Origin: Naegleria gruberi
Lineage: Eukaryota
DNA length: 64,000 bases
Strand: one strand, 5' to 3'
NCBI GenBank assembly: GCA_000004985.1
Contig: GG738905.1
Part shown: positions 1,935-48,693 of the stretch, piece after piece
Position numbering within the stretch: the first letter of the stretch is position 1
Layout of the letters: every line of letters starts with the position of its first letter
The notes under the pieces: generated by a model
Told to the model about the DNA's origin: nothing
Seen by the model: the letters and a program-made list of their open reading frames with translations, nothing else
Databases searched by the model: none
Position numbers and translations under genes: made by a program

Positions 1935-3259
1935 ATGGTCGAATCCGTTGCTCAACAATTAAGCACCCTCTCCATTTCAACAGGTCCTTTCCAATCCGAT
2001 GGCGAACACTACAAGTTACTTAAAAACTATGAACAAATTGATGCCCACGCAAAATCTATTCCATCCAGTGAAACATCTACCCTTACACAATTGGTAACCT
2101 ACCTCACTAAACCATTCTCTAGCATTGAGGAAAAGGCAAGATCCATCTTTGTCTGGATTTGTGAAAATGTTGTCTATGATGCTGAGAGTTTCCTCTCCAA
2201 TCAGCATGCTGTCTATGTTCCAAGTGAACACGACAAGTTCTTTAGTGAAGATGAAAAGAAGATGTACTGCCCAACTTCTCGTCTTACCTTCATTCAAAAG
2301 AAGGGTGTTTGCAGTGGTTACGCAAGACTCTTCAAGAATATGTGTATTCAATCAGGCATTCAAAAGGTATCATGTGTTGTTGGTTTTGCAAAGCTTGTTG
2401 GTTTCAATCCTTTGAATCCAGTAGATATTAAGGAATCAAACCATGAATGGAATGCTGTTGAACTTGAAGACGGATCTCTCAGATTGATTGATGCTTGTTG
2501 GGGAGCTGGTGTTTTGGGCGGATCATCATTCCAAAAGATTTTCACATCAAGATACTTCTTCATGAGCCCAAATGAAATGATTGCTTCCCACTATCCAGAA
2601 GATCCAAAATTGCAATTAATTTCACCACCTGTTAGTCCTGATGATTTCGTTAATAGAGTTCGTATCAGTACTCATGGATTTGCGGATGGAATTAGCACTA
2701 TCACTCATAATGAAGCTTGCATTGTATTGACAGAATCAAATATTGCTGACATTGTCATTCAATGCGATGAGAATGGATTCCAAGTGTTGCTGATTTGTCA
2801 ACTGGTGAAGAACTTAAAGCTGCCTCTGCTCGTGTTGATGGTCACAATATTATTATCAGTGTTTGTGTTCCACAACCTGGTGTTATTTACCAACTTTCCA
2901 TTTTTGCAGGTGTTAGAAAGTGTGAAGAAATGTTGACTTATTTCGTTAGAGTTGAAGGTGGAGCTAATATTGAGGAAGTTTCCTATCCATCTGAATACGG
3001 CTCTTGGAAGACCTATGCTGGTGAATTAATTTCACCAAAAACTGGTAAAATGAAAGTTGGCACAACCTATTCATTCAAGATTCAATTCCCAGCTGATAAA
3101 ATGGTTGCCATGGTAATGATACCACCAAGTGATCAACTTGTTTCTAAGGGAAATGGTTTGTTTGAAGGTGAATACACCCCAACAGCCCCAGGAAAAGTCA
3201 ATCTTGTTGGTGGTTCTGGATCTAGACTTGAAGGACTATTGGCTTTCGATGTTGTATAA
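1935..3259 (+). pseudogene. transglutaminase-like / KY (kyphoscoliosis peptidase)-type cysteine peptidase domain protein, interrupted by an apparent 1-nt frameshift near 2770-2795
   Basis: ORF 1935..2936 carries the transglutaminase-like core (KKGVCSGYARLFKNMCIQSGI ... NHEWNAVEL ... RLIDACWGAG; Cys-His-Asp). The protein clearly continues in another frame as ORF 2795..3259 (EELKAASARVDGHNIIISVCVPQPG...). No GT..AG intron of plausible size bridges the two. Confidence 0.5.
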
Positions 3260-3319
3260 TGTAATTGTAATAAAACCAACTTTTACATTAACAATCATAT
3301 CACTAACTTTTCAAAGATC

Positions 3320-4640
3320 GTAAATCATGCAAGAACCAGTTCTTTGAGATTGAGAATATTGTATTGACAGAATCAAGTACGAAATTATGATAATAGTATT
3401 GGAAAGATGAGTTGATATTTGAATAGTAAATTGAAGTTTAGTTAGGGAAATCAGTTTTCTATCCAAGTTTGGAACCTTACATCCAACTTTTTTGAGCTTG
3501 TTCCAAATGAAAAACTATTCGAAATGGTTTAAATTAGCACCATGGATTGAACTATTCCATCCAACAAAAACAAAAAATGAAAGCAAATCTAATCTTTTCA
3601 ATTGCACTTCTACTTTTACTTGCAGTCCTCTCAGTTCAAGCAAATGACAGCTATCAAGCCAAACCTCCAGTCGTCGTTGTTGACAAGTATCACAAGCCAA
3701 AGCATTGTAAGAGAAAATGCTTAAAGCATAAGTGGATTAAGAAGTGTTTAAAACACAAACTCGTTGGTCAAAAGAAAGTCTGTGATCAATATGCCATTGT
3801 CGGAGCTGGTAAATGTCTTAAACATAAGAAATATTCCAAATGTGACAAGTATAGCAAGCCAACAAAGAAGTGTGTCTTGCATGCATACAAGATTGTTGGT
3901 TGTGCCAAGAAGAAGTACTGGAAAGTTTGTGATTCTTATGGAACAAAGAAGATTTGCATCAAGAAGGGTTACAAGAAATACTGTGCCAAACATAAGATTA
4001 TTAACAAGTGTTTCAAGAAGGGTGTTAAGAAGGTCTGTAAGAAATTCAAGAAGGTTCCAATCAAGAAATGTGAAAAGAAGAAGGTTTGCGACAAGTACAC
4101 TGTTGATTCCTACAATAAGAAGGTTTCCAAATGTAGATATGTTAAAAAATGTAAGATTGTTTCATGGGCAAAGAAATGTGCCAAGTATAAGAAGGTTAAA
4201 TATTGTAAGGAAAGAAAATCAGTTAAGAAATGTTGTCTCATTAAGAAGAAATACTGTGCCAAACATAAGACTATCAAGTTCTGTAAGCACAAGAAGATTC
4301 TTTCTAAATGTGTCAAATATCAAAAGAAGAAATATTGTGCCAAGACAATTGTCATTCCTCCAAGATGTATCAAGAAGAAGTATTATAAGAAGTGTTTGAA
4401 ACGTTCAAAGGGAAAGAAGATTTGTAAGAAATTTAAATTAGTTGGTGGAAAGAAGAAGTGTTGCAAGTCAATCAAAAAGAAGATTTGTATCAAGAGAAAG
4501 ACATGTAAGAAGTCATCAAAGCCAATCATCAAACCATCTTTGTAAATGATTATTTTCAAATGTTTCTAATACCTTAATAAAGCCAGAACCATTCTGCAAA
4601 CTCTTATTGCAAACAAATTTCAAGAAATGTTGGAAATCCT
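3320..4640. repeat. left arm of a ~1.3-kb inverted duplication; its partner is at ~41540..42905
   Basis: The reverse complement of 41540..42905 matches this segment. The match covers the gene and ~200 bp of flanks on each side, with a few indels in the flanks. Confidence 0.8.
3577..4545 (+). CDS. secreted, extremely Lys/Cys-rich basic protein (copy 1); the ORF is open from 3547
   Basis: A signal-peptide-like MKANLIFSIALLLLLAVLSVQA is followed by ~310 aa with about 30% Lys and ~38 regularly spaced Cys (KKC/CxK periodicity). A near-identical copy lies inverted at 41629..42600. Confidence 0.6.
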   Translation: MKANLIFSIALLLLLAVLSVQANDSYQAKPPVVVVDKYHKPKHCKRKCLKHKWIKKCLKHKLVGQKKVCDQYAIVGAGKCLKHKKYSKCDKYSKPTKKCVLHAYKIVGCAKKKYWKVCDSYGTKKICIKKGYKKYCAKHKIINKCFKKGVKKVCKKFKKVPIKKCEKKKVCDKYTVDSYNKKVSKCRYVKKCKIVSWAKKCAKYKKVKYCKERKSVKKCCLIKKKYCAKHKTIKFCKHKKILSKCVKYQKKKYCAKTIVIPPRCIKKKYYKKCLKRSKGKKICKKFKLVGGKKKCCKSIKKKICIKRKTCKKSSKPIIKPSL

Positions 4641-4750
4641 ATAGAAGTGAGTTCATTTGGAACAAGCTTCAATTAAACAATTTAAAATCAATTGTATAAG
4701 ATTAAGGTACTATTTTCATTATTAAGGTACTATTTTTACTATGAATGAGA

Positions 4751-4822
4751 TCCCGTGTAGTCCAATGGCTAGGATACCTGGCTTTCACCCAGGAGGTCCG
4801 GGTTCAATTCCCGGCATGGGAG
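4751..4822 (+). tRNA. tRNA-Glu (anticodon UUC)
   Basis: TCCCGTGTAGTCCAATGGCTAGGATACCTGGCTTTCACCCAGGAGGTCCGGGTTCAATTCCCGGCATGGGAG folds as a cloverleaf, with a 7-bp acceptor stem, a GGTTCAATTCC T-loop and anticodon TTC. A downstream TTTT run follows. Confidence 0.9.
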
Positions 4823-5324
4823 GGTCCTTTTGCATATCTTTTTACCAGGCAAGGAATGTAAAACAGTTAAATTTTGAAGTAAACTTCTTGATACAAGTAA
4901 TATTTTCAATGTACCAACCTTCTCATCTTTACTCTCAATGAGCCTAACACCAAGTCTTTCACTTGCCCAATTGAATGCAAGCCTCACACAAAGAAAACTT
5001 GCTTCTCCTCCATGAATGGCCTATCAAAAGTACATACTTATCCTTCAAAGCATGGAAAATTAATTATGGAGACGGGAGCTTGGACCTTCACGTGATACGT
5101 GATGGTGGTTGCTGCCACTAAAACAATTCAAAGGGAGCCTACTTTGATTTTTCACAGTATTTTAACACTTCTTTGATTGAATTGTAACAGTATGTAAATA
5201 AATTAAATTAATCCTAAAAACATAAAATTTTTATGATTTCTTATGAAATGTTAAATGTTAATAGTAAGAACCAGAGTGTGACCAGAAAATATAATATCTT
5301 AGTGGTTGTTATTGTCACATTTCA

Positions 5325-5402
5325 ATTATTATTTTGGACGGGAAGCCTGCCAGGAATATGGCAACAATCCCGCTACAGTCTTTGACTGTATGAACAGTGA
5401 AG
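5325..5402 (+). repeat. conserved ~75-bp element R2, copy A; the second copy is at 41178..41253
   Basis: GACGGGAAGCCTGCCAGGAATATGGCAACAATCCCGCTACAGTCTTTGACTGTATGAAC is ~90% identical between the copies. It contains an ACAGTC-TTT-GACTGT hairpin and resembles the 3' part of 5S rRNA (GGGA..CC.GCC.GGAATA...GCT..AG.CTTT). Both copies sit near tRNA-Glu genes. Confidence 0.5.
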
Positions 5403-5579
5403 GCAACTAATCTATTGATTGTTGGTTCAGTAAGTTATTGTTTAGAAAAGCTTGCTACGTGACCATCTATTTATCACCTTTAAATTTGATCTAATTAGAA
5501 AGAAACTTGTGGTTGATCAATAAACGATAAAATTTCGAATTTGAGTCTTCAAATATTGAAATAGTGTTCAAGATTAAAA

Positions 5580-5664
5580 GACTCAGCACCACAGGTTCCC
5601 AAGTTGTCTCCAACCTCAGTACTGATGTGGCTCGACGATGCTTAACTTCTCAAATCGGACGGGA
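5580..5664 (-). ncRNA. 5S rRNA-related sequence, 5'-truncated copy A (pseudogene or 5S-derived element)
   Basis: On the minus strand, GAAGTTAAGCATCGTCGAGCCACATCAGTACTGAGGTTGGAGACAACTTGGGAACCTGTGGTGCTGAGTCTTTT aligns without gaps to the last 74 nt of eukaryotic 5S rRNA at ~68% identity. This covers the loop E AGTACT, GGAGAC, TGGGAA and GGTGCTG segments and ends in a T-run. The 5' ~35 nt of a real 5S (GCCxACGGCCATACC...) are absent. Confidence 0.55.
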
Positions 5665-5784
5665 TGAGGTGCACTAAATTTATTAATAGAAACATGTCAT
5701 TCCAAAATTGTAAAATGATTAGCAAATCTAGGTTTCGATATTTTGAGGAAGGGGAAGTCTATTGAAACTTTATAATCTTGCTTA

Positions 5785-20306: not shown

Positions 20307-20964
20307 TTTTTTTGACGGTAAATTGATTAGTGGCAGCTCGCTTCACTTTCCAACATCAAAGGCTGTTGTGAAATTGTTAACGAGAGAGCATCTTCTTGAT
20401 GGTGACTTTTTGAGGTTGGGTCTGTTTGTGGTGAAAAAAACAGAGCGGAGTGGTTTACAAAATGATAACTGGCATGTGATTGGTGTGGAGAGGTTTAAAA
20501 GTCCTTTGGCGGAACAGAGATTTTGAAGCATCCGATTCTGTTATCAACTCTTTCTGTTACAAATTATCGAAATGATGATCATATTGTTATTACAATATTT
20601 TATGTGTTTTACAATTGTATTTAATTATTTAAATGTTTAATTGACTTTAACAAACAGGTCGTAAATAAAGCTATTATGAAAGAGAAATTAGAGCAATAAA
20701 TGCTATCATTCGCGCCTAATAGCTTTTGTTAATGAATAGCAAGTGAATTGTTAATGGAATACACCAATGAAATTCAAAGTGGATTAAACTATTCAATGAT
20801 TGCTTGTATTGAAGAGTTGGTTTACAATTATTTGGCTTGTAATCTTTAAACAAGGGTTACGACAAACACACCAAAAAAATTGAAGGCTGTTTAAATGAGA
20901 TATGGTAACGATTTGGAACAAAGTTCAGTAAAAAAGTCAATTAATACTCAACTATTGACTCAAA

Positions 20965-21060
20965 AAATTAAAAATGAAAAATCTAGAAAAAAATGGGTAT
21001 TAATCTGAGGTTATTTAAAAAATAGATACACATCTTCAGTGTCTAAATTTTGAGAATCAA
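20965..21060 (+). repeat. short conserved element X, copy A; a direct copy lies at 27890..27975
   Basis: AAAATGAAAAAT...GGTAT(T/C)AATCTGAGGTTATTTAAAAA..ACACATCTT(C/A)AGTGTCTAAATTTTGAGA is ~85% identical between the two loci. Both lie just outside the tRNA-Gly inverted pair. Confidence 0.5.
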
Positions 21061-21139
21061 CTACCATCTAATGGTTACTACATACTATTCAAAAATTGAG
21101 AATGGACATTGAAAGTTGGATGAAAGAAAAAGAAGCGAC

Positions 21140-21210
21140 TGCGTCGACCGGGAATTGAACCCGGGTCACGGCGATGGCAACGCCGTATTCTACCACTAAA
21201 CCATCGACGC
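21140..21210 (-). tRNA. tRNA-Gly (anticodon GCC)
   Basis: The minus strand reads GCGTCGATGGTTTAGTGGTAGAATACGGCGTTGCCATCGCCGTGACCCGGGTTCAATTCCCGGTCGACGCA. It is identical to the copy at 27614..27684, and ~50 bp of 5' flank and ~80 bp of 3' flank are also inverted-repeated. Confidence 0.9.
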
Positions 21211-21344
21211 TTCACATTTATTTAGAATGTAACCTTAATTCGACACTAAGGGGATCGCTTTTATGTATTTATTTATTGAAAATTAAAATCTAAAAGCATA
21301 TGTGAAAAAACTCAAAACCTTATTAATTTCAATATTAAAGTTTT

Positions 21345-21947
21345 TCAATTCAAAACAACGGATGGGATTACAACGGCCATTACTACAATTAAACCTACCA
21401 ATGCTAAGAGAATCAAGAAGGGTAACCAAGTTTTCAATATGCCACTCACTCCATTAACATATTTTCCATAGAAAAACATTAAAAATCCAATTTCAACAAT
21501 GCCAATATTTCTATTCTTGAATTTCATTTGATTTAAACAATGAACCGTATAATGATGACAATTCTGACAAAAGAAATTATACATTTTCGATCTAAAACAT
21601 TTGGCTCCACTCTTAATATTCGAATCATAATTTTCCAATTGTTCTTGACTCAATTGATTCTTAATATTTAAATATCGGGTTGGTTTTCCAAATGCAAAAT
21701 CATCAACACTAATATAATAAGGTCCAGCAAAATCATGGATAATACCTTTTGAATTGGCAATACCCATATGTCCAACAAATGGTAAAAACCATGTTATCAA
21801 TGGAATTGGTGTCCAAACAATACAATAGGGATATCTATCTCTACTCGGATCAAATAATTCTTCCGATGATGATAAAATACCATCATAACTATTTGAGTGT
21901 GTTGATCCGATAATTTCCTCTGTATCTTCTGTATCTTCGTTATTCAT
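21345..21947 (-). CDS. TMEM222 / DUF778-like membrane protein
   Basis: YPYCIVWTPIPLITWFLPFVGHMGIANSKGIIHDFAGPYYISVDDFAFGKPTRYL resembles the conserved core of the DUF778 family. A C-terminal TM helix is present. Confidence 0.4.
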   Translation of the reverse strand: MNNEDTEDTEEIIGSTHSNSYDGILSSSEELFDPSRDRYPYCIVWTPIPLITWFLPFVGHMGIANSKGIIHDFAGPYYISVDDFAFGKPTRYLNIKNQLSQEQLENYDSNIKSGAKCFRSKMYNFFCQNCHHYTVHCLNQMKFKNRNIGIVEIGFLMFFYGKYVNGVSGILKTWLPFLILLALVGLIVVMAVVIPSVVLN

Positions 21948-22271
21948 TTTTTTTAATATTTTAATTTTGAAATTTAGTTAATTTTATTAAACAAGCAAGT
22001 ACATTAGGATAGTTTCCAATACGTATGAAGTAATATTCAAAATTTGTACCTTATTGAGTTGTCATATTTGACTATTTTATCCCAAATACTATAATTGTTT
22101 CACTTTACAGGATTTTGCTGGCTTCAAATTGCTAACTAAGTAAAGTTTGGTAGATTAAAATTAACTGTTTCATTTCTGAAATACAACACTGTTAATGGAT
22201 TAATTATTTGTTTTGTTTCCAAAATGCGTTTAGCTCCTTTCTGAAATGTCTTCAACATAAATACTTAATAT

Positions 22272-23372
22272 TTACAAAAATCTAGAAACATTCTTTCCAA
22301 AATCTTCATATTCATGCCTGTCTAACCAAACTTCTCGGAAGGTGGACATGGAAGAAAATATAGATCCTCCAATCCATGAGGAGTATTTTCTGGTAGGTTT
22401 CTCACTCACTTTACATTCGACACTTGAGGGAATCAAGTTTGAAAATTCCCTGTTGAATCTTTCAATAAATCCTGGAAACATTGTATTTCCTCCACAGACA
22501 ACAATGTTCTTAAATAAATCCTTTCTCATATCAATATCAGAACTTCTAATAGAACTATTAACTAATTCGTGAACTCCAACAAAATCAAGATCCATCAATT
22601 GAGGTTGGAACATTAATTCAGTTGCCTTGATTCTAAGTGTTGATACATTCATTATTGTTCCATCAGGTAACTCATATTCTTCAGTCTTTGGTTCTGTCAA
22701 CTCCTTTTCATAATTTTGAGCAACATAGCAGACTTTTCTCTTGGCATCTCCTGCAATTTCTCTTTCTGCAGCAGTGTAGCTTTGATATCCTGACTCCAAT
22801 AAGAGTGAATACAACGATCTAGTTAAATCCCCTCCTCCGAATGGTATTGTTTGCAAAGCGTTTCTAATTGGTTTTCCTTCATAAATAGGAAGAGCATAGG
22901 TCAGCTCTTTACCTGAATCCAAAACTGTTCCACTCACAATTCCAGAACTTTGCATAGCCATCACACCTTGAACTGAAAAATATAGAGCAGGAACTCCAAA
23001 TGATTCAAACAAAATTTCCATAATTTTCTCTCTACCTTCCACAGTATTGACAGGAGAATCAGCTATTAGTAAGGGATGATCCATTGGATCTACTCTCAAT
23101 TCATTCTTAAAACAATGAGCAAATATCTTTTGCAAATGATCGAAATTCGTGATGGATCCTCTTTGGAAAGGATGGCTAATATTCAATATTCCCCTCTTAC
23201 TCAAAGCATCGGATCCAACATATTCCCCTAACTGGAGAACATTCATCTTCTTGAATTGCCCCAAACATGTTGGAAGATCAACCCTTGGAGCATCATCTCC
23301 TGAAAACCCACATTTTGTATGACCAGAACCAATATCAAAAACTAAGCCCTGAGGAAGTTCATCTTGTTCCAT
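22272..23372 (-). CDS. divergent actin-related protein (actin-fold ATPase)
   Basis: LVFDIGSGHTKCGFSGDDAPRV parallels actin [23 protein letters not shown]. The protein is 366 aa, collinear with actin over its full length, and of moderate identity. Confidence 0.7.
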   Translation of the reverse strand: MEQDELPQGLVFDIGSGHTKCGFSGDDAPRVDLPTCLGQFKKMNVLQLGEYVGSDALSKRGILNISHPFQRGSITNFDHLQKIFAHCFKNELRVDPMDHPLLIADSPVNTVEGREKIMEILFESFGVPALYFSVQGVMAMQSSGIVSGTVLDSGKELTYALPIYEGKPIRNALQTIPFGGGDLTRSLYSLLLESGYQSYTAAEREIAGDAKRKVCYVAQNYEKELTEPKTEEYELPDGTIMNVSTLRIKATELMFQPQLMDLDFVGVHELVNSSIRSSDIDMRKDLFKNIVVCGGNTMFPGFIERFNREFSNLIPSSVECKVSEKPTRKYSSWIGGSIFSSMSTFREVWLDRHEYEDFGKNVSRFL

Positions 23373-23767
23373 TTTTTTTTAAATGTACCAGCACCAATGG
23401 TGCTAACAATAAACTATTTAGATTTTTTTTTAAATGTTAGATCAATACTTAATAGTTCAAAGCAGTTATTTAAGCATTAAAGTATTGAGCGTTGAGATAA
23501 AACTCAAAAAATAAACAATAGTAATAGTACAGATTCAGATATCAAAGTAAATTGTTGAATACTATTAAATTGATCACTATTGATTATTTAAATATTTTCT
23601 TCATACTAGAATTTGAATTACTAATGAATAAATCATTTACTGAATGTCCAATCCTTCCACACAAATAGAATATCTCAGATAATATTGTTTTCCTGAGTTT
23701 GATTAGAGTTAACTGCTTTTGCATTAGATTTTGCTGTCAATGACTGATGGCATCTATTTCACGAATA

Positions 23768-25002
23768 CTACACATCAATAATTATCACAAGATCCGATAA
23801 AGCCTTAGTGGACAGCAAAGAGCCAAGATTCCGTTTCATATGTAGTTCACCCTTTCTGGTTTCGTCAAATATCTCATAATAAATAACATATTGCCAACCT
23901 CCAACTGAGATAGTATTGAACTCTTCCCTATCAAATGTAGTAATATTAAACTTGAACAATGATGGATTAAGTTTGAGTTCTGATGGAGGAAAATCTGAAA
24001 CAACCTCACCAGCCATGAATACATCACCATTTGCTTTAGAAAAGTGTTAAATAAATGGAAAATTATATTAAACCTACTATTAATTACAACAGTTCCTCTG
24101 GAAGAACATGCTATCTCTTTAGGAATTCCAAAATCAAATTCAATTAATCTGAAATCTGAAAGAGAATCAATACCAGCATCAGCAATACCAAATGTAGATT
24201 GCTTCAAAGTATTGTAACCACATCCGAATATTTGATTATTCTCTAAAAGAACAATTGTATGGAAAAATCCACATTTAACATCCTTGATATTTGCAGGAAA
24301 TTCAAATGGAATCTTTTCGAAAAAACTTGATGAAAAATCATTATTAACTGAGGTGAACACATTAAAAGTGTTATCTCCTCTGGCATAGAGATGCTTATCT
24401 GAAGCCAAAACTACTCCACTTCCACAACATGCTGCAAGTTTAATAATTGTTGGGCTTTCTTTAGTATTCAATGAAAATTGCTGATTATTAACAAATACTC
24501 TTCTATCATTGGTTAATACTACATGATGTGAAGATAATGGTCCACAGAAAAACTTATTAATTCCTCCAAAACTCGAATAGTCCTCAATTTTAAATTTCGG
24601 GTCAGTTTCAATATAATCTATTATTCCAATTCTTGTCTTCTCCAATAAAAAGATGTGGCCACCACCCATTCTATATTGAATTTTCTTAGGATTTCCCATT
24701 AAATCATTAATATAATAACCAGTGACATGTTTAACTTCTTGTGGTGTAGTATCTGTTTCCATCAGAAGTGAATCAAAAACATTTGATTTCTTCTTAATTT
24801 TAATAGCCATAGAATTATCTGCAATACTACGCGGTTTACTTGTAAATTCTACCAATCTATTGGTATCACTACAAACAAAAAAGACAAATCTATCCCCCGA
24901 CAATATCTTACTAAATTTAAAGTCATCAAATTCATATTTTGTCCATCTAGTTGTACTTTCCAATCCCAAATCTATTCCATGAATAATAATTATCATCATC
25001 AC
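23768..25002 (-). CDS. hypothetical protein, 2 exons, possibly a beta-propeller/RCC1-like fold
   Basis: ORF 25002..24078 reads into a 45-bp intron (GTAGGT...CTAAAG, 24033..24077). The frame resumes in ORF 24032..23768. Weak GxN..GQxG-like repeats (FGCGYNTLKQ, LYARGDNTFNVF) are present. Confidence 0.35.
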
Positions 25003-25465
25003 AATTTAAATCATGTAATTCTAGTCTCCGTTCCGATAAAATAATAATACTTACTTGCTGAAGCAAAATAATTGGCCAGCCAAAATGATTTAGACATTTT
25101 TTCTTGTTGGTCAATTCTGGAATGGATTCAACACTCTTATTAAACTACTTGAGGTGTTGTGCTTATTTTCAAGCCAATAATTTTTGTTTATTATTGGATA
25201 ATGTTAGAGAATCATATTCCAAGTGAAAATTCTTTGAAGCTGTGCTCAACCAACATGTTCTTGCATTGAAACTCCTTCATTTATATGATAGAGAATATGG
25301 ATTAATCCATTGTGTTTTAACGTTTAGATATCCATTAATTCATCTCAATGAAGAAATTAATAAAGACCCTTACCAAGAAATTGGATGAACACGCAAAGAA
25401 ATCAATTACTTCCACAGTAATAAATCAATCCCGCACTTTACAGAATATTGAACTTTCTATATTGA

Positions 25466-27031
25466 TTACTCATAGCACTTATCGAAGTATTCAACAAATG
25501 ATGAATGTGAAATGGATGCCACAAATCTTCCTATGCTTAAATCATAGTACTCCTTAATGGAGTCATAATCTGCATCACCACTAACTCTAGATATATTTGC
25601 ATGCATTACAAGGTGGTGAATTAGCGATTCATTTTCAATAAAATGTTTCTTGACAAGATTGTGAACTTTTCCTTCTGACCAATTAGTAATTGGTTCGTAT
25701 TGAATGTCCATTGATTGAGGAATAATCTCTACATATGGAATCTCTCTTAATAAATCACATTCTAAAAATCTTTCCAATATTGAAAATCCTTGCAACGAGA
25801 TTCTCAATAGTTTGGGAAATCTTTTTCTTGTTAGCCCAGCAATAATATTCTTTTCAATTTTTTCATAATTCTCAATATTTTCGCAATATTCAGGGCAGTC
25901 GTATCGAATAGTCAGATCACGAACATTTGGAAATACTCCCTCTTCCTCTAGAAAATTTGAATAGAGTAATGCACCTTCATCAAAGTAGGTAATTGTACTA
26001 AAACGAAAACATAGATATTGAATATGATCTGGTATAGAAAATCCCTGATAGGTCCACTCATTTAAATTAATTGATAAAGCAATGTAATTCGAAGCCATTT
26101 GCTTAAAAATAGAAAAATCTTGTAAATTATTCAAATCAACCATTAATCCAAGGGCCTTTGTATCAGAAAAATTTTGAGTGAATAGTCCTTTAGAAATTAA
26201 GCAACAATTTTCAAAAGTATCATAACTGTTATAATATCCACTATGTTTTTCGCTATCAAAGTGTGAAATCATATCCAAAGATAACATGAGAGCCTTGTGT
26301 AAAAACAAATCATATGCTAAAATTTGATTATGCTCTTCTATCTTTTCAAATTTTTCATTTGAAAACATTAACTGTTGAATTCTTCTCTCAAATTGTTGAT
26401 TAACTTCATGAGTATCAAATTCATTCTCAATTTCTGTTATATCAACATTAGCACCGCCCCAACTATCAATACATTCTGAAGTATCAATTATATCAGCATA
26501 CTCTCTATTGCAATTCATTTCTGTGGTCTCAATTAATTTCTGCATTTTCACATAACCAATTGATTCCCCAACTGAAATATCCCCTTTTGCCAATGACAAT
26601 CCCTCCGATGATGCAAATCTCTGCCAATAAACAACCATCTCCAAAACATTTGAAACTCTCCTCCAAAATTCATTCATCTCCACAACAAATAATGCTTTAA
26701 ATTTCTTAGATACAGCACAACAAAACTTTTGTATCGTCCTCACAGTACTCAAATCCAATCGTTCAATCATCCGAGGTTGAACCACTTTTTTAAATTTCAT
26801 AATTTGATCATGATTATTTAATTCAATTTGATGAAGTGGTCCGAGCCAATACTCGAAAATACAACACTGCCAAATTTCCGTTGGAATTTCCAACAACTGA
26901 TGATCTTCTTTCATTTTTAATTTTTGTTGAAATTCGAAATTGTGGTTGATTGATGTAAAAATAGATTTGTAATTTTGAATTAAGGCTAAATTGGGAATCA
27001 ATTTTGTAAGATTGTCCAGCATTAGTGCCAA
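25466..27031 (-). CDS. F-box-like protein with C-terminal LRR-like region
   Basis: The N-terminal LLEIPTEIWQCCIFEYWL is F-box-like. Leucine-rich segments RFPKLLRISLQGFSILERFLECDLLREI lie near the C-terminus. Confidence 0.4.
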   Translation of the reverse strand: MALMLDNLTKLIPNLALIQNYKSIFTSINHNFEFQQKLKMKEDHQLLEIPTEIWQCCIFEYWLGPLHQIELNNHDQIMKFKKVVQPRMIERLDLSTVRTIQKFCCAVSKKFKALFVVEMNEFWRRVSNVLEMVVYWQRFASSEGLSLAKGDISVGESIGYVKMQKLIETTEMNCNREYADIIDTSECIDSWGGANVDITEIENEFDTHEVNQQFERRIQQLMFSNEKFEKIEEHNQILAYDLFLHKALMLSLDMISHFDSEKHSGYYNSYDTFENCCLISKGLFTQNFSDTKALGLMVDLNNLQDFSIFKQMASNYIALSINLNEWTYQGFSIPDHIQYLCFRFSTITYFDEGALLYSNFLEEEGVFPNVRDLTIRYDCPEYCENIENYEKIEKNIIAGLTRKRFPKLLRISLQGFSILERFLECDLLREIPYVEIIPQSMDIQYEPITNWSEGKVHNLVKKHFIENESLIHHLVMHANISRVSGDADYDSIKEYYDLSIGRFVASISHSSFVEYFDKCYE

Positions 27032-27613
27032 ATTTGTATTCTTTTAAGATGATTGAGTTAGAGGCATTATTAATTGTAGGCCAATCATCGAGGCAAGTTT
27101 CTTCAATATAGTTGTCAAATGAACACTATGAAGTATTACACTTGAGGTTAAGGCGCATTTCCTTCAACAAAAAAAACAACTCAAAATAAACACTTTAACA
27201 TGAAGTTCTCAATTTTGGCTCTTTTCCTGTACTATTTGTCTGCTCACTCTATTACATTAGAAAAAGACAGTTCTTAACTGATGCTTTGTGCCACATTACG
27301 GCAATTGCTAATACTTAGACCTACTCTGAATATATATTTATTGTGAATTGATTGCATTACAGTTCTATTGTAAAGATCAATGGCACTGTAATCAACAGTC
27401 AAATTTATCATCATTTATGGGTATGGCTGCAATGTGGATTACAATATCAACTAATAAGCAGTTTATATTCTCCATTATGGATATTATATTATATAATATT
27501 TGGATTGGATGATTGAAGGCGCAAAATAGTTTACCTTATCCGAAAAATTAAAGTAACTGGTAACTTCGTATCCCTTAGTGTCGAATTAAGGTTACATTCT
27601 AAATGAATGTGAA

Positions 27614-27684
27614 GCGTCGATGGTTTAGTGGTAGAATACGGCGTTGCCATCGCCGTGACCCGGGTTCAATTCCCGGTCGACGCA
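27614..27684 (+). tRNA. tRNA-Gly (anticodon GCC), inverted partner of 21140..21210
   Basis: It has the same 71-nt sequence as the minus-strand copy, followed by a T-run (TTTTTCTTTC). Confidence 0.9.
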
Positions 27685-28433
27685 GTCGCTTCTTTTTCTT
27701 TCATGGTCCATTCTCAATTTTTGAATATCATGTAGGAACCGTTTGAGGGTAGCTTGTGCCTTAGATGACTGATTGTATGGAGTAAAAAAATTCTTCTCAT
27801 TTTTTTTTGAAATCACAAATATTAGCATATTATGATTCCTTTTTGGACTAATAATTCCATTTACTTTTAATTAAAACCATTTACTCAATAAAATGAAAAA
27901 TTCAGTAAAAAAATAGGTATCAATCTGAGGTTATTTAAAAATCAACCACACATCTTAAGTGTCTAAATTTTGAGATAATTGATCTAAATTGTTTTATCCT
28001 TCCTTTTGTTATGATAGAGAGATGGTCTTACTCGCCTCGCATATTAAGCATGGATTACGAATGTTTGATCCAAAATTCAGATAATCCAATAATTGCATTG
28101 GAATATTTGAAAAATCACGCCGACAAATAATATGACTTGGATAAGGACTTGTTTAATTTGAATTTCGTTATCAAAGCAGTGGATCTTAATTCAGAAGTTT
28201 TTGACGTAGTATAATTTCTATCAAAACGATCCTAGTGTCATGCTGAAAGCAGCTTTTGGAGGTGGTCCTAATGTAAAAGGTTTATGTAAGATTAAGGATT
28301 TCACTCTTATCAAGAAGGTAATGAAAGCGAATCCACTCGCTCTTAAAAATTGTAAAGAAATTCAGATAAATGGGCCCACTAGCTCATAAAAGGTAGAATT
28401 ATATCAACACAAGAATTTTAACATAAATGTGCT

Positions 28434-28504
28434 CGTCTCGTGGTGTAATGGTAGCATAGTGGACTTTGAATCCATTGACGGAGGTTCGATTCCTCCCGAG
28501 ACGG
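28434..28504 (+). tRNA. tRNA-Gln (anticodon UUG)
   Basis: CGTCTCGTGGTGTAATGGTAGCATAGTGGACTTTGAATCCATTGACGGAGGTTCGATTCCTCCCGAGACGG has an anticodon loop CTTTGAA, a GGTTCGATTCC T-loop and a downstream T5 run. Confidence 0.85.
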
Positions 28505-28630
28505 TAAACGTGGCGAGCCATGAAATTTTTAACTCATTTTTTTAACATTACAATGTTAACTTGGTAAATTCTGGAAACTTGAAAAAAAAATGTATTTCAG
28601 TGTAGCTGATCCCAATAGGATCATGAGGTA

Positions 28631-29634
28631 TTATCTTGAATTAAGAGAACATGAGTAATATTTTCTGTGTGCTTTACCAACAAGCAGTGATAATAGACTT
28701 TGAATTTCATGCCAATTATCAATGATTTTAGGATTATAGGATTTAACTAAAATAATATTTAAAGCCTTAATAAAGCCTCTATGATTTAAATTGAGAATTG
28801 AATTGTGTCTATCCCAAAAAGTGTCATGGGGACGAAGCTTACAGGATGCTCCTGTAAGATTCGTGAATTTAGTTAAGAAATATCTTCTAAAACATTCGGT
28901 TTCTTCACAGTAGTATATGAAACGTTCCAAATCCACTTCACATTCACAGTTATCACAATAAACTTGACGAAATTGTCTAATATGTGAGTCGGTCATGTTT
29001 CTCCAAATTGACAATTTGGTTTCAGTGTCAAATCTTTGATCCATATATTTCAAATTGATATGAGTGAGGGACTGACTTTGGTTAAAAGGTAAGTCAGATT
29101 TATCCTCAAAAATATCTAAATATTCTTTTCTCTGGATATCTTTGATGTATTTTCTATAGTCAAAGATGATTGTTTTCTTATTAGTATTAATTAAAATCTT
29201 TTGGTTTTGGGATAATAGTTTGGTAATATCAATCATATTTTGTCCTTGTGCACCTTCTTTTGCTAATTTATCAACTATAATATTCTCTGGATCTTCATGC
29301 CCTTTCACTTTAACTAGATGGATATTTAAATGTTTATCCTTAATGGTACCAAAGAATTCTTCTTGAAATCCTTGAAAGTCTCCTCTGTAACTCTTTTTTA
29401 AAACTTCTATAGCAACTTGACTATCAGTAGGAACATTAGCATTGGAATGATTTGGCAGCATTTTGATTGCTGTCAAAAAAGCCATGATTTCAGCCACGTT
29501 ATTGGAATATTCTTCATGAATCTTGAAGGAATATTTGAAACTTCTATTTTCTGAATTAAATATATTAATTCCAAATCCCACTTGGTTTTCAATCTTTGAT
29601 CCATCTGTGTGAATATTAAATGAATGACCCCCAT
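28631..29634 (-). CDS. RNase H (type 1) domain ORF lacking an in-frame start codon upstream of the domain; possibly retroelement-derived or domesticated
   Basis: The frame opens right after a TAA and reads FGSNGGHSFNIHTDGSKIENQVGFGINIF ... NNVAEIMAFLTAIKML ... TDSQVAIEVL ... IHLVKVKGHEDPENIIVDKLAKEGA, which covers the Asp/Glu/Asp/His motifs of RNase H. The first Met is internal to the domain. A Cys-rich tail CDNCECEVDLERFIYYCEETECF follows. No reverse transcriptase lies nearby. Confidence 0.5.
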
Positions 29635-29682
29635 TTGATCCAAATTAAAATCATTAAATTGTTAAAAAAAACTTGAAAAAAA

Positions 29683-41025: not shown

Positions 41026-41177
41026 TTTATTGGCCAAACAACAGACAACTACATGAAAGCAATAACATACAAATGTAAATATTAATTTTTACACGTAATT
41101 ACATAGGAATACATTCAATTAGAGTATCCACACGAAATGAAGCAAAAAGATTAGATGTACATGGTTTGTTATTTCAC

Positions 41178-41253
41178 TTAATTATTAGACGGGAAGCCTG
41201 CCAGGAATATGGCGACTGTCCCGCTACAGTCTTTGACTGTATGAACTGTGAGG
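41178..41253 (+). repeat. conserved element R2, copy B
   Basis: The same sequence as 5325..5402, here ~200 bp upstream of the second tRNA-Glu. Confidence 0.5.
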
Positions 41254-41456
41254 TACGTCGTCTTTCGAGTCAGTAAGAGAGAGTGATTGGAGAAAGAGAG
41301 GATGAGTTAGTTCATTTATTGATTTTGAAATTGATCACCTAGATAAAAAGTATTTTGGGTAAAAAAATTCATAAATTGATCTCTAAGATATTGTTGACAA
41401 TAAGGCAAGACATCCGTTATTATAATATTAGGGAAATATTAAAATCAGTAGTGAGA

Positions 41457-41528
41457 TCCCGTGTAGTCCAATGGCTAGGATACCTGGCTTTCACCCAGGA
41501 GGTCCGGGTTCAATTCCCGGCATGGGAG
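41457..41528 (+). tRNA. tRNA-Glu (anticodon UUC), second copy
   Basis: Identical to 4751..4822 and on the same strand as that copy, even though the neighbouring Lys/Cys gene is inverted. Confidence 0.9.
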
Positions 41529-41539
41529 GATGTTTTGCC

Positions 41540-42905
41540 TTTTAATACCGACTTGCATCCTTTGTTGAAATTGTTTTGCAATAAGAGTTTGCTTTATTAA
41601 GGTATTATAAACATTTGAAAATAAGTATTTACAAAGATGGTTTGATGATTGGCTTTGATGACTTCTTACATGTCTTTCTCTTGATACAAATCTTCTTCTT
41701 AATTGACTTACAACACTTCTTCTTTCCACCAACTAATTTAAATTTCTTACAAATCTTCTTTCCCTTTGAACGTTTCAAGCACTTCTTATAATACTTCTTC
41801 TTGATACATCTTGGAGGAATGACAATTGTCTTGGCACAATACTTCTTCTTTTGATATTTGACACATTTAGAAAGAGTCTTCTTGTGCTTACAGAACTTGA
41901 TAATCTTATGTTTGGCACAGAAGAATTTCTTCTTAATGAGACAACATTTCTTAACTGATTTTCTTTCCTTACAATATTTAACCTTCTTATACTTGGCACA
42001 TTTCTTTGCCCATGAAACAATCTTACACTTTTTAACATATCTACATTTGGAAACCTTCTTATTGTAGGAATCAACAGTGTACTTGTCGCAAACCTTCTTC
42101 TTTTCACATTTTTTGATTGGAACCTTCTTGAATTTCTTACAGACCTTCTTAACACCCTTCTTGAAACACTTGTTAATAATCTTATGTTTGGCACAGTATT
42201 TCTTGTAACCCTTCTTGATGCAAATCTTCTTAGTTCCATAAGAATCACAAACTTTCCAATACTTCTTCTTGGCACAACCAACAATCTTGTATGCATGCAA
42301 GACGCACTTCTTTGTTGGCTTGCTATACTTGTCACATTTGGAATATTTCTTATGTTTGAGACATTTACCAGCACCGACAATGGCATATTGATCACAGACC
42401 TTCTTTTGACCAACGAGCTTGTGTTTTAAACACTTCTTAATCCACTTGTGCTTTAAGCATTTTCTCTTACAAATTCTTGGCTTGTGATACTTGTCAACAA
42501 CGACGACTGGAGGTTTGGCTTGATAGCTGTCACTTGCTTGAACTGAGAGGACTGCAAGTAAAAGTAGAAGTGCAATTGAAAAGATTAGATTTGCTTTCAT
42601 TTTTTGTTTTTGTTGGATGGAATAGTTCAATACATGGTGCTAATTTAAACCATTTCGAATAGTTTTTCATTTGGAACAAGCTCAAAAAAGTTGGATGTAA
42701 GGTTCCAAATTTGGATAGAAAACTGATTTCCCTAACCAAACTTCAATTTACTATTCAAATAATATCAACTCATCTTTCCAAAACTATTATCATAATCTCA
42801 AGGACTTGTTCTTCCATGATTTACGACCTTGTACATTTTTTAACTAAGGTATTATAGTAATTTCGAATAATTTGATTATTTATTTGATTCTGTCAATACA
42901 ATGCT
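41540..42905. repeat. right arm of the ~1.3-kb inverted duplication; partner of 3320..4640
   Basis: The reverse complement matches the left arm. The gene copies differ by a handful of substitutions and one 3-nt indel. Confidence 0.8.
41629..42600 (-). CDS. secreted Lys/Cys-rich basic protein (copy 2)
   Basis: About 98% identical to copy 1. The differences are N->S, KHCK->RICK, a KKYCAKHKTIKF->KKFFCAKHKIIKF indel, and I->T. Confidence 0.6.
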   Translation of the reverse strand: MKANLIFSIALLLLLAVLSVQASDSYQAKPPVVVVDKYHKPRICKRKCLKHKWIKKCLKHKLVGQKKVCDQYAIVGAGKCLKHKKYSKCDKYSKPTKKCVLHAYKIVGCAKKKYWKVCDSYGTKKICIKKGYKKYCAKHKIINKCFKKGVKKVCKKFKKVPIKKCEKKKVCDKYTVDSYNKKVSKCRYVKKCKIVSWAKKCAKYKKVKYCKERKSVKKCCLIKKKFFCAKHKIIKFCKHKKTLSKCVKYQKKKYCAKTIVIPPRCIKKKYYKKCLKRSKGKKICKKFKLVGGKKKCCKSIKKKICIKRKTCKKSSKPIIKPSL

Positions 42906-43216
42906 TCATTAGGGTGATCAAACTAAAACACCTATTGGGAAAGCTAGGTATCCTAGCCATTGCACTACTTCTTCAAAATGTAACTATTTCATTAAAATAT
43001 CGGTTGTTTTAATATTTGTATCTAAAGTGTTCGATAAGTTTAAAGAAATAGGTCTGATTGTTATCAAACAGTAAAGCACTTGCAAATAATTCTGAAGATT
43101 TTAAAAGGATAGAGGTTGCATTCCTCAAAAACTAATTAATTCTTCTTTGATAATTATTGTAAACTCATACAATCAATTTTAAAATTACAATCAATTCCGA
43201 AAAACAATTAAAAAAA

Positions 43217-45037: not shown

Positions 45038-45262
45038 TCCTTCTCTAAAAAGTAGTTTATCTGAATGAAAGAATTCAATTTTGATATGAGTTTTCATCCT
45101 CTTCACTATCGCTTTCACTCCAACTAGATGCTTTAATATCTCCTTTGTATCGTTTTGAGTAAATAACAAGGATAGTCGTTCAAAGATTTGTTGAAACCTT
45201 TCACAGTCGACCTTTACATTACTTATCAAACAGTTGACAATACAGTGTAAGATAATCACTGA

Positions 45263-48200
45263 TTGACAAGTTACGGAATGATAAAAAAATACTCATCAAA
45301 TGCACTCTATTTCGCGAATGAAACTTTTAAAAACGATAGAGATGCAATATTAACAGCAGTAAAAGAAAATGAGTTTGTACTCCAATATGCTAATGAAACA
45401 TTGAAGAATGATAGAGAATTTATTTTGGAAGCTGTAAAGATAAATGGAAAAGTACTCCAATACGCGAAGGAAATATTTAAAAGTGATAGGGAAATTGTGT
45501 TGGAAGCTGTTAAAGATGATGGATTAGCACTTGAATATGCCAATGAAATTTTAAAACATGATAGAGAAATTGGATTGGAGGCCGTAAAAGAAAATGCCGA
45601 AGCATTTCTTTATGTAAATAACACATTGAAAAAAGATAGGGGACTTGTATTGAAAGTTGTTAAACAAAATGGAATATTACTTCAATATGCAAATGAATTA
45701 TTGAAAAAGGATAGAGAAATTGTGTTGGAAGCTGTTAAAGATGATGGATTAGCACTTGAATATGCCAATGAAACATTAAAACAAGATAGAGAAATATCTT
45801 TAGAGGCTTCAAAACAAGAATTTTATAGAGGAATTATTTTAGAATCTAATATAAGATATACACCGAATCTTTTTTACGCTTTTAATAATTATATCGAATT
45901 TAAAAATTTGAGAAACGATAGAAAATTTATATTAGAAGCTGTAAAACAAAATGGATTAGCTCTTGAATATGCTAATGAAATAATGAAAAGAGATAGAGAA
46001 ATTGTATTGAAAGCTATTCAAGAAAATGGATTAGCTCTTGAATATGCAAACGAGACATTGAAAAAAGATAGAGAAATTGTGTTGAAAGCTGTAAAACAAA
46101 ATGGATTAGCACTTGAATATGTTAATGAAATAATGAAAAAAGATAGAGAAATTGTATTGAAATCTGTTAAGAAAAATGGAAAGCCGTTTCAATATGCAAA
46201 AGATACTTTGAAAAATGATAGAAAATTTATTTTGGAAGCTGTTCAACACAATAGAGATATATTTTTATATGTAAATGCAATATTGAAAATGGACAGAGGG
46301 TTTATTTTGCAAGTAATCAAAAAAAATAGAGATGTGCTTGAGTGTGCCGATACGAGTTCAGTTTATTACGACACAACCTTAAGTTATTTACTTTGCAATG
46401 ATACAGTTCTGGTTTATTTACTTTCTAAACATAATCCAGAATTATCCAGAAAGTTTTCACCACAATTAACTCAGATTATTGATGAATCCAACAATCTAAA
46501 CGCCAAACTATCCAAAGATGTGATTGAACTATACTCAAAACAGCTCAACTCTGAAAATGATTTGTATTATTGTATTGAATTACCAAATGTAGAGCCAGAC
46601 AAATCGTTAACCCCGCATTGGTTCTCTTTCAAACCAACCTATTCAGTAGAATTTATTGAAAAATTGGTTATATTTCAAATATTGAAAAAAGTACAAGAAA
46701 TGGAACCATCAAATGATATTTTCAACGGTGAAACTACTAACTATAATTTCTTTTGTTTCAAGTTGGATAAACTTCTGGAAGAAACTTTAATTCAACCAAA
46801 AACTGTCAAAGATTTGAGGAATACTGTTGAGAGTATTTCATCTAAATTCGATACATCATTTTACTCCAAAAAGGAAATCAAGTGCATCAGGTATTTTTTC
46901 ATAACATGGACAGAAAGTGACAAATCTTTTACTGACTACAGGAGGATATTGTCAAGATATAACGAAAAACATGGTGATCTGTCAAAAATATTCAAAGCTC
47001 TCAATAGATACTACAAATATTTCAATAAGAATTACGACTTTATTTCAATATTAGGAAACGGTGCAGAAGGGGCTGTTTTCAAAGTATTACACAGAGAAAG
47101 TAGAACGTTGATGGCTATCAAATTCAAATATGAAGTAGAAGATAGCGAAGAATCAACAAATGAAATTATTAACTTATTGAAACGAACAGATATGTGTGGA
47201 AAGATAAAATGTTTTGATTGTGGAATGATTGAAAGACATTTATATTCAGTAATGGAATTGGGAGAAGAATCTCTATCAGATTATATTCAGGCAAATATTG
47301 AAGTTTATAGAAATTCATCCATGATGACTAAAGAGAAATTAATTGAAATCCTGCGAATATTTATGCAAATATTAGAATCTGTTCAGTCCATCCATGATCA
47401 CAACATTTTACATGGAGATTTAGATCCGCAAAATATTGTCAAAGTTGGAGATCAATACAAACTAATTGATTTTGAAACTTCCAAAGTAATCAAGACAGGA
47501 AATTCAATTACAATTGCTCGTGGAAAGTTTGCATACATGTCTCCTGAAGTTTCACATGATAATTACACTGATGACATGTTTAAAAGAAATAATGATTCTA
47601 AATTAGCTCATAACATTGGAAATATTACAATCTCATGTGATATTTTTTCATTGGGATGTATTTTATTGAAATTATTAACACATTGTCCATTACAATTAGA
47701 TGAGCACTTTGTTAATGATTCTGATTTATCAAAATATAAGGATAATTTCATTTATTTCACAACCTATGGAAAGTATTTCTATACGGTTGTAACAACAAGT
47801 GAAGGGGAAACCAAATTACACTATGCCATCGAACAACTGATCAACAAATCAATTGATACAAATTATGGAGTGAACAATATATTAATCAGATGTATTATTA
47901 CAATGATTCAAAGAGATTCTTCCAAAAGATTGTTTTGTTATTCATACAAAACAACTCTTGAGAATGTAATTAAATTTTTGAATGGAGAAATTGAAATATC
48001 AAACATTGAGATGGACATCAAGCAGTATAAGGAAATAAAATCCTTGATGAGTTACTCTCGACTTTTGGAAGAAATCAACAAAGTGAATCAGAGAAATGAT
48101 TTCTTGAATGAAAAAATTAAACATCTTGAAGATGAAAACAACAAATTAAATCAGGAAATCAACAAATTACATCAGAGAAATGACATATTGATGGAAAATA

Positions 48201-48461: not shown

Positions 48462-48505
48462 ATATCTTTTTCGTTTTCAAATATGAGACAGAACTATTTT
48501 AAAAA

Positions 48506-48585
48506 GACTACAGCACCACAGGTTCCCAAGTTGTCTCCAACCTCAGTACTGATGTGGCTCGACGATGCTTAACTTCTAAATCGGG
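48506..48585 (-). ncRNA. 5S rRNA-related sequence, 5'-truncated copy B
   Basis: Nearly identical to 5580..5664 over ~85 nt. Homology to copy A and to 5S begins at the same point (CCCGATTT.AGAAGTTAAGCA). It lies 45 bp downstream of tRNA-Asn on the opposite strand. Confidence 0.55.
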
Positions 48586-48693
48586 AGGAGTTATCTTTTA
48601 GTACAGTTTTCTTGATTAAGAATTTTTGAAGCTGACAAGTTTATCTTTACCTTTGCACAAGTATCAATTAAGACCAAAAAGCTGTCAAAAAAA

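Follow-up and report, generated by a model that had tools for sequence, protein, structure and literature searches.

A duplicated tRNA-Gly module and a short direct repeat in Naegleria gruberi, best read as an old rearrangement scar

The stretch of DNA considered here, 64,000 nt of contig GG738905.1 in the Naegleria gruberi assembly GCA_000004985.1 and referred to below as the window, contains two genes for tRNA-Gly(GCC) that are identical in sequence, lie head-to-head, and are transcribed apart from one another across a block of 6403 bp holding four further genes. Each of these tRNA genes belongs to a longer module that is inverted between the two sites, and on the 3' side of each lies one copy of a short repeat, element X, that is in direct orientation. 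An initial annotation, made from the sequence alone, had pointed to this mixture of inverted and direct repeats and had attributed it to successive tRNA-targeted insertion or recombination events. The anatomy of the repeats and their divergence are described first, followed by the explanations that might account for them and by the other duplicated sequences of the window. All positions are counted from the first nucleotide of the window, and those of the individual features are collected in Table 1.

The inverted tRNA-Gly modules and element X

Two programs, ARAGORN and Rfam, agree on both tRNA-Gly genes, and together with alignment and blastn, which pairs the two inverted arms at E = 2.7e-71, they bear out the initial description of identical genes lying within inverted repeats. 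The length of the intervening block, described as ~6.4 kb, is likewise confirmed by measurement. The lengths first given for the repeated flanks, ~50 bp on the 5' side and ~80 bp on the 3' side, are refined by measurement to 42 nt and 68-79 nt, respectively. Similarity between the arms is not uniform along their length. The near-identical core comprises the tRNA gene, all 42 nt of the 5' flank, and the first 20 nt of the 3' flank, within which lies the T5 terminator run; in the left arm this run begins 9 nt past the tRNA gene. The core is followed by an 11-nt indel, at which the left arm carries the additional nucleotides CCAACTTTCAA relative to the right arm, and then by a distal arm of 55 nt at 85% identity.

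Element X is recognizable as an ungapped direct repeat of 83% identity between positions 20969-21055 and 27889-27975, and blastn reports it at 87% identity over 86 nt (E = 6.7e-22). Gapped alignment lengthens the repeat leftward by ~30 nt, so that the element is longer than the ~90 bp at 20965-21060 and 27890-27975 that were originally proposed for it, although the repeat itself and its direct rather than inverted orientation at both sites are confirmed by alignment. Both copies have a GC content of 22-23%, and two blocks, of 20 and 18 nt, are conserved exactly within otherwise diverged sequence. The possibility that X is simply a common low-complexity, AT-rich motif, which would have undermined the original description, can be set aside. 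A conserved 20-mer and a conserved 27-mer of the element each occur twice in the window at <=3 mismatches, against expectations of 0.09 and 0.00, and a profile built from the two copies detected no third copy in the window.

The two sites differ in how these components are arranged. At the left site the order is X in plus orientation, 4 nt, and the tRNA module in minus orientation, and at the right site it is the tRNA module in plus orientation, a 116-nt spacer (spacer S), and X in plus orientation. The orientation of X relative to tRNA-Gly is therefore opposite at the two sites, a different end of X faces each module, and the distance from X to the 3' end of the tRNA gene is 83 nt on the left and 184 nt on the right. 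X had been placed just beyond the 3' flank at both sites, which holds on the left, with its gap of 4 nt, and fails on the right, where X lies 116 nt past the arm. Even so, both of the X copies present in 64 kb lie no more than ~120 nt from where an arm ends on its outer side, a placement estimated to arise at random with a probability of ~0.4%, and X and the tRNA module therefore appear to have a common history.

No homology was found past the outer boundaries of X or of the arms, where local alignments score no higher than the mean of shuffled controls. Because alignments crossing these boundaries are no better than shuffles, both modules can be said to end sharply. Likewise, a third tRNA-Gly remnant was sought to the right of X-right and was not found, and no paralogue of the gene to the left of X-left was found in the vicinity of X-right.

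Table 1. Positions in the window of the repeats, genes, and other features discussed
Feature	Position	Strand or orientation	Remarks
X-left, 118 nt	20939-21056	+	22% GC; right end 4 nt from outer end of left arm
Left arm (module G), 192 nt	21061-21252	-	42 nt 5' flank, 71-nt tRNA, 79 nt 3' flank
Near-identical core, 133 nt	21120-21252 / 27572-27704	left copy -	1 mismatch; 99% complementary
tRNA-Gly(GCC), left	21140-21210	-	ARAGORN and Rfam
RTE1/TMEM222-like gene	21345-21947	-	first in block; Pfam; 100% full-length identity to N. gruberi predicted protein
Actin-family gene	22272-23372	-	Pfam; <=45% identical to actins of other organisms
RCC1-repeat gene	23836-25002	-	Pfam
521-aa open reading frame	25466-27031	-	N. 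gruberi-specific paralogue family
Right arm (module G), 181 nt	27572-27752	+	42 nt 5' flank, tRNA, 68 nt 3' flank
tRNA-Gly(GCC), right	27614-27684	+	ARAGORN and Rfam
Spacer S, 116 nt	27753-27868		contains T9 run; single copy in the window; between right arm and X-right
X-right, 108 nt	27869-27976	+	same orientation as X-left
tRNA-Gln	28433-28505	+	3' end 77 nt from 3' end (T-run) of LINE fragment, tail to tail
LINE fragment, 5'-truncated	28582-29655	-	RNase H reading frame 28631-29581 (-) and ~200-aa C-terminal region
Gene A	3369-4638 / 42812-41550	inverted	95% identity; no Pfam match
Gene A with upstream fragment e	2700-4638 / 41550-42918	inverted	fragment e 86%
Element D9, 82 nt	5319-5400 and 41171-41251	+	two copies, 89%; relatively GC-rich
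5S rRNA-like sequence 1	5578-5699	-	Rfam, 56 bits, above threshold
5S rRNA-like sequence 2, degenerate	48505-48611	-	36.7 bits, just below Rfam threshold; 40 nt from tRNA-Asn, tail to tail

Divergence of the repeats and a favoured history

The similarity of the two sites falls in a single step that coincides with the 11-nt indel. The core differs at 1 of 133 positions and the distal arm together with X at 19 of 141 (Fisher p = 2.5e-5), and a difference is still evident when only the non-tRNA portion of the core is counted (1 of 62; p = 0.009). Selection on the tRNA body is insufficient to explain the identity of the core because it accounts for 71 nt only. Nor is the identity of the 42-nt 5' flanks readily ascribed to a general promoter constraint, as the two copies of a tRNA-Glu gene elsewhere in the window have merely ~5 nt of upstream identity in common. 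The most economical reading of these comparisons is that the 133-nt core may represent a gene-conversion tract between the inverted tRNA-Gly copies, ending at the 11-nt indel, and that conversion, not selection, would be what maintains it.

Gene conversion among dispersed tRNA genes has its classic case in the serine tRNA genes of fission yeast. The tRNA-Gly pair resembles that case in having a tract of near-identity centred on the tRNA gene, older and more diverged flanks, and heterology at the end of the tract, and differs from it in that the two genes involved are inverted relative to each other and share one chromosome, 6.4 kb apart, and in that conversion is deduced from one snapshot. As conversion between inverted repeats can bring crossing-over with it, the four-gene block could flip, and the near-identical inverted arms of 133 nt thus predict a possible inversion polymorphism of the block among strains.

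Outside the core, the distal arm and X have diverged equally (85% and 87% identity, respectively), which argues for one time of origin. The feature is best read as real, beyond chance, and as an ordinary old rearrangement scar in the nuclear genome of N. gruberi rather than as the footprint of a mobile element. The history favoured here, at a probability somewhat short of even (about 0.45), is a local patchwork duplication at the DNA level, produced by template switching from the right locus and followed by gene conversion. The right copy would most likely be the donor, so that the ancestral state would be that of the right locus, with tRNA-Gly in plus orientation running uninterrupted into its natural 3' flank, spacer S, and X. 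From this stretch two short pieces would have been copied ~6.5 kb leftward and joined 4 nt apart, the tRNA module (181-192 nt) in inverted orientation and X (108-118 nt) in direct orientation, with spacer S representing ancestral donor sequence that was left uncopied. A single event could have produced both patches if a replication or repair polymerase switched template twice, in the manner of fork stalling and template switching (FoSTeS) or microhomology-mediated break-induced replication (MMBIR), and a fork stalled at the tRNA gene would be a plausible setting for such switches. Neutral divergence of ~13-15% would then have accrued before conversion re-homogenised the 133-nt tract.

Template switching of the FoSTeS/MMBIR type has been described as a source of duplications (PMC2621351). 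The stalling of forks at tRNA genes is a proposed stimulus of copy-number changes, with origin-dependent amplification of inverted repeats also considered (PMC11790251). The arrangement at the tRNA-Gly genes shares with such cases short templated segments, a nearby donor, mixed orientation, and a position beside a known class of fork barrier, and the tRNA-Glu mosaic described below adds a second multi-patch example from the window. On the left, 4 nt separate the joined segments of mixed orientation, as against 116 nt on the right, and one age fits all of the patches (85% versus 87%), as template switching would have it. The described cases are, however, fresh events that are often large and have readable microhomology at their junctions, whereas the tRNA-Gly/X arrangement is old (~15% divergence), involves only ~0.3 kb of copied sequence, and has junctions that are unreadable.

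Several considerations weigh against this history. With two copies at ~15% divergence, the junction microhomology that it leads one to expect cannot be read, and the possible overlap of 1-3 nt at the patch junctions (CAA/TTG) is indistinguishable from chance at that divergence. The polarity of donor and recipient needs an outgroup, and other Naegleria show no synteny at the locus: RTE1 is all that the window has in common with the RTE1 loci of N. lovaniensis and of another Naegleria, neither of which yielded a tRNA gene. Copy counts for X and for the tRNA flanks hold for the 64-kb window only. The sister-strain contig that aligns with the locus covers the interior of the block alone, and contigs of that strain stop short of the repeat junctions. 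A series of simple events gives the identical end state. Finally, selection on an upstream promoter element could add to the identity of the 5' flanks otherwise assigned here to conversion.

Alternative explanations

It is possible, if rather unlikely, that several simple events in succession gave rise to the arrangement. In one variant, a tandem duplication of the tRNA-Gly module was followed by inversion of the 6.4-kb block with one of the copies, and the X pair arose by a separate duplication or through a micro-inversion of ~225 nt comprising X and the adjacent flank. In another, an inverted duplication of X together with the module was followed by micro-inversion of X and the spacer. Inverting the block and the right arm on paper does yield two tandem tRNA-Gly modules, a common arrangement for tRNA genes (tDNAs), adjacent pairs of which are mostly parallel (PMC2888827), and arms that are inverted and 99% identical over 133 nt are capable of mediating an inversion. 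Such a series calls for two to three independent events, however, with breakpoints that coincide precisely with the ends of X and the module, and one time point is favoured by the fact that X and the distal arm are equally diverged (87% and 85%). A micro-inversion variant in which flank beyond X was copied is excluded, as the homology sought between spacer S and the DNA to the left of X-left was not found. A succession of simple events is essentially the recombination half of the view taken in the initial annotation. That half holds to the extent that the opposite orientation of X relative to tRNA-Gly at the two sites calls for recombination or rearrangement beyond a single, simple inverted duplication; the other half, insertion targeted to tRNA genes, is not supported by the comparisons described below.

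Another process by which short inverted duplicates can come to flank a block of genes has reportedly been described by Ranz and colleagues in Drosophila, where staggered breaks yield inverted duplications at the ends of inversions. The tRNA-Gly locus is similar in having a short inverted duplicate at each end of a multi-gene block. The staggered-break model predicts, however, that the second duplicate would lie inside the far arm and be inverted, whereas X lies outside the arms and is direct.

It is improbable that X is a fragment of a dispersed mobile element that goes into sites close to tRNA genes, on their 3' side, such as a solo long terminal repeat (LTR), a miniature inverted-repeat transposable element (MITE), a short interspersed nuclear element (SINE), or the tail of a long interspersed nuclear element (LINE). 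The elements for which such behaviour is known include TRE5/TRE3 and DGLT-A of Dictyostelium and, in yeast, the solo LTRs sigma of Ty3 and delta of Ty1. These are found at a characteristic distance and orientation beside many unrelated tRNA genes, have target-site duplications, and are accompanied by a coding master element. Work on TRE5-A has been cited in connection with the N. gruberi tDNAs (PMC2888827). X resembles the remnants of such elements in being a short repeat within ~200 nt of tRNA genes in the compact genome of a protist, each copy lying 3' of a tRNA-Gly gene, and a true LINE insertion is found 77 nt downstream of the neighbouring tRNA-Gln gene, ~600 nt from X-right. The copy count of X, moreover, rests on a 64-kb window, so that further genomic copies remain conceivable. 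Unlike the TRE and Ty elements, however, X in the window shows neither association with many tRNA genes nor a characteristic offset, target-site duplication, or match to a coding master element. It is absent from the flanks of the remaining six of the eight tRNA genes in the window, and both its offset (83 versus 184 nt) and its orientation differ between the two copies. The junction sequences contain no target-site duplication, and the ends of the element, which reads AATTAA...TTTTGAGA, have neither TG..CA termini nor poly-A. No coding signal was detected, the only tblastx match of X being to its own second copy. Finally, the divergence of X equals that of the adjoining duplicated flank, which fits co-duplication of the two better than independent insertion.

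Searches beyond the window gave no further indication of a dispersed element. A scan of metagenomes of the Joint Genome Institute with the conserved 20-mer of X identified six loci that match the bare 20-mer alone and have no tRNA beside them; these are chance matches. Viral contigs contained no match to the same 20-mer, and a 25-mer from the 5' flank of tRNA-Gly had no match in prokaryotic genomes or in viral contigs.

The LINE fragment beside tRNA-Gln is of interest here because it is a genuine retroelement close to both a tRNA gene and X. Its homologues are proteins with endonuclease, reverse-transcriptase, and RNase H regions, of which the open reading frame (ORF) in the window corresponds to the C-terminal third, and the direct repeat ACATTTTTTTT(T)CAAGTTT occurs on either side of the copy. 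A copy in a sister-strain metagenome is 98.4% identical and has other flanks, with no tRNA within 265 nt, which suggests that the family is young, and no tRNA gene lies within 3 kb of a relative found in another Naegleria assembly. With these two other informative copies lacking a nearby tRNA gene, targeting of tRNA genes by the LINE family is not supported. X does not align significantly with the 3' end of the window copy or with those of the relatives L010 and L011, and a likeness to the LINE 3' end that catches the eye ('ACACTGAA...T-run') is not significant, so that X is not supported as a LINE tail either.

A functional X, whether a small RNA gene, a regulatory element, or an element associated with RNA polymerase III (Pol III), that is kept beside tRNA-Gly by selection is very improbable. 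The exact blocks of 20 and 18 nt within diverged sequence might be expected of such an element, and the other small repeat of the window, D9, folds into two conserved hairpins near tRNA-Glu. X, however, has no match in Rfam even at E <= 5, and no fold common to both copies was found on either strand. When both copies were folded on both strands, three of the four z-scores lay near zero, and a stable stem predicted for X-left is broken in X-right. The low GC content of the element and the lack of conservation in its position and orientation relative to the tRNA gene also argue against a retained function.

Least credible of all is that 21057-27868 is an inserted or mobile gene cassette with tRNA-bearing terminal inverted repeats, for which X would be a target-site duplication of ~110 nt: the order of direct repeat, inverted arm, four genes, inverted arm, and direct repeat is formally transposon-like, with terminal inverted repeats at both ends (192 and 181 nt) and with X and the distal arms of equal age, but no transposase, integrase, or retroelement ORF was found among the four block genes, the direct repeat is not short (108-118 nt) and does not abut both arms (4 nt away on the left and 116 nt on the right), the inverted arms would need a prior origin and thus an additional event, and to our knowledge a target duplication of ~110 nt is not a feature of any transposon superfamily.

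The gene block, other duplicates, and the abundance of tRNA genes

The genes between the two tRNA-Gly copies had been described as TMEM222-like, actin-related, RCC1-like, and F-box-LRR genes. Pfam supports the first three of these assignments. The fourth is not upheld, as the 521-aa ORF has no match in Pfam or in PDB, and its F-box-like motif was noticed by eye only. A sister-strain contig (L001, from metagenome ENA ERZ929261) is collinear with the window across the actin-family and RCC1-like genes, and the actin that it encodes is 98% identical to the actin-family protein of the window. Among close relatives, the strain of run ERR1078381 shows 98-99% identity. Just upstream of the actin-family gene, ~52 nt at 23373-23424 are missing from this contig; they are bounded by the direct repeat TTTTTTTTTAAATGT, hold the palindrome AGCACCA-A-TGGTGCT, and constitute a small strain-polymorphic duplication or insertion.

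In addition to the predicted protein that matches the RTE1/TMEM222-like gene, another N. gruberi protein model can be placed on the window, with 98-100% identity. This model, P0215 (720 aa), corresponds to 25469-27019 and 28844-29485 on the minus strand, so that the retroelement RNase H region is joined to the 521-aa ORF across ~1.8 kb containing tRNA-Gln, X-right, and tRNA-Gly. It is almost certainly chimeric. Also within the block, ~150 nt from the right arm, a C/D-box small nucleolar RNA-like sequence at 27355-27420 (-) gives a weak match to the Rfam family snoMe28S-Cm2645 (28.9 bits, E = 0.095) that is probably due to chance.

A second scrambled duplication in the window, detected by blastn between 2700-5400 and 41171-42968 and lying 16-37 kb from the tRNA-Gly pair, also involves a tRNA gene. 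Gene A and the upstream fragment e are repeated in inverted orientation, whereas tRNA-Glu (97%) and D9 (89%) are repeated in direct orientation with their order swapped. A 30-nt fragment of the 5' part of tRNA-Glu occurs inverted at 42939-42968, so that inverted tRNA-Glu sequences stand on both sides of the second gene A copy. Of the 17 pairs predicted for the two hairpins of D9, 16 are unchanged between the copies and one is compatible as G-U, the substitutions falling at unpaired positions. D9 has no match in Rfam, and the predicted fold raises the prospect that it may be an undescribed small RNA gene near tRNA-Glu.

The two 5S rRNA-like sequences of the window are 98% identical over the 3' 84 nt and unrelated over the 5' 25-40 nt. 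Neither 5' end resembles a canonical helix I, and either sequence, or both, may be a pseudogene truncated at its 5' end. Internal repeats of ORFs and generic tRNA similarity aside, every dispersed repeat in the window falls in a duplicate cluster that includes a tRNA or 5S gene. The internal repeats, which are unrelated to the tRNA-Gly/X pair, are in-frame tandem arrays in long ORFs at 45233-46339 and 61016-62277, with nine copies of a 75-nt period and a period of ~230 nt, respectively.

The genome of N. gruberi is ~41 Mb in size. The window, at ~32% GC, holds eight tRNA genes and one 5S rRNA gene above threshold. For the genome as a whole, 924 tDNAs have been reported (PMC2888827), a number from which it follows that duplication of tDNAs is rampant in this organism. 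Set against the genome size given above, this number corresponds to one tDNA per ~44 kb, so that the window is roughly five-fold enriched.

Taken alone, the tRNA-Gly/X arrangement is a routine scar, a duplicated tRNA gene with its flanks that is probably kept identical by conversion. The best reading makes it one more instance of known processes and not a new kind of element. As such it offers a clean worked example of how the pattern of a tRNA gene with a repeat nearby need not signify an element that targets tRNA genes. Considered together with the tRNA-Glu mosaic, it hints that small scrambled duplications have arisen repeatedly at the tRNA genes of N. gruberi. A more general proposal, speculative and on present evidence unlikely, is that N. 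gruberi disperses its tDNAs and 5S genes generally through short "patch copying" of Pol III genes, whereby modules of 80-320 nt would be templated into intergenic sites nearby, with their order and orientation scrambled. If this were true, the tRNA-Gly/X pair and the mosaic of tRNA-Glu, D9, and gene A would be two old products of patch copying, and the process would help to explain why N. gruberi has 924 tDNAs as compared with 65-91 in kinetoplastids.

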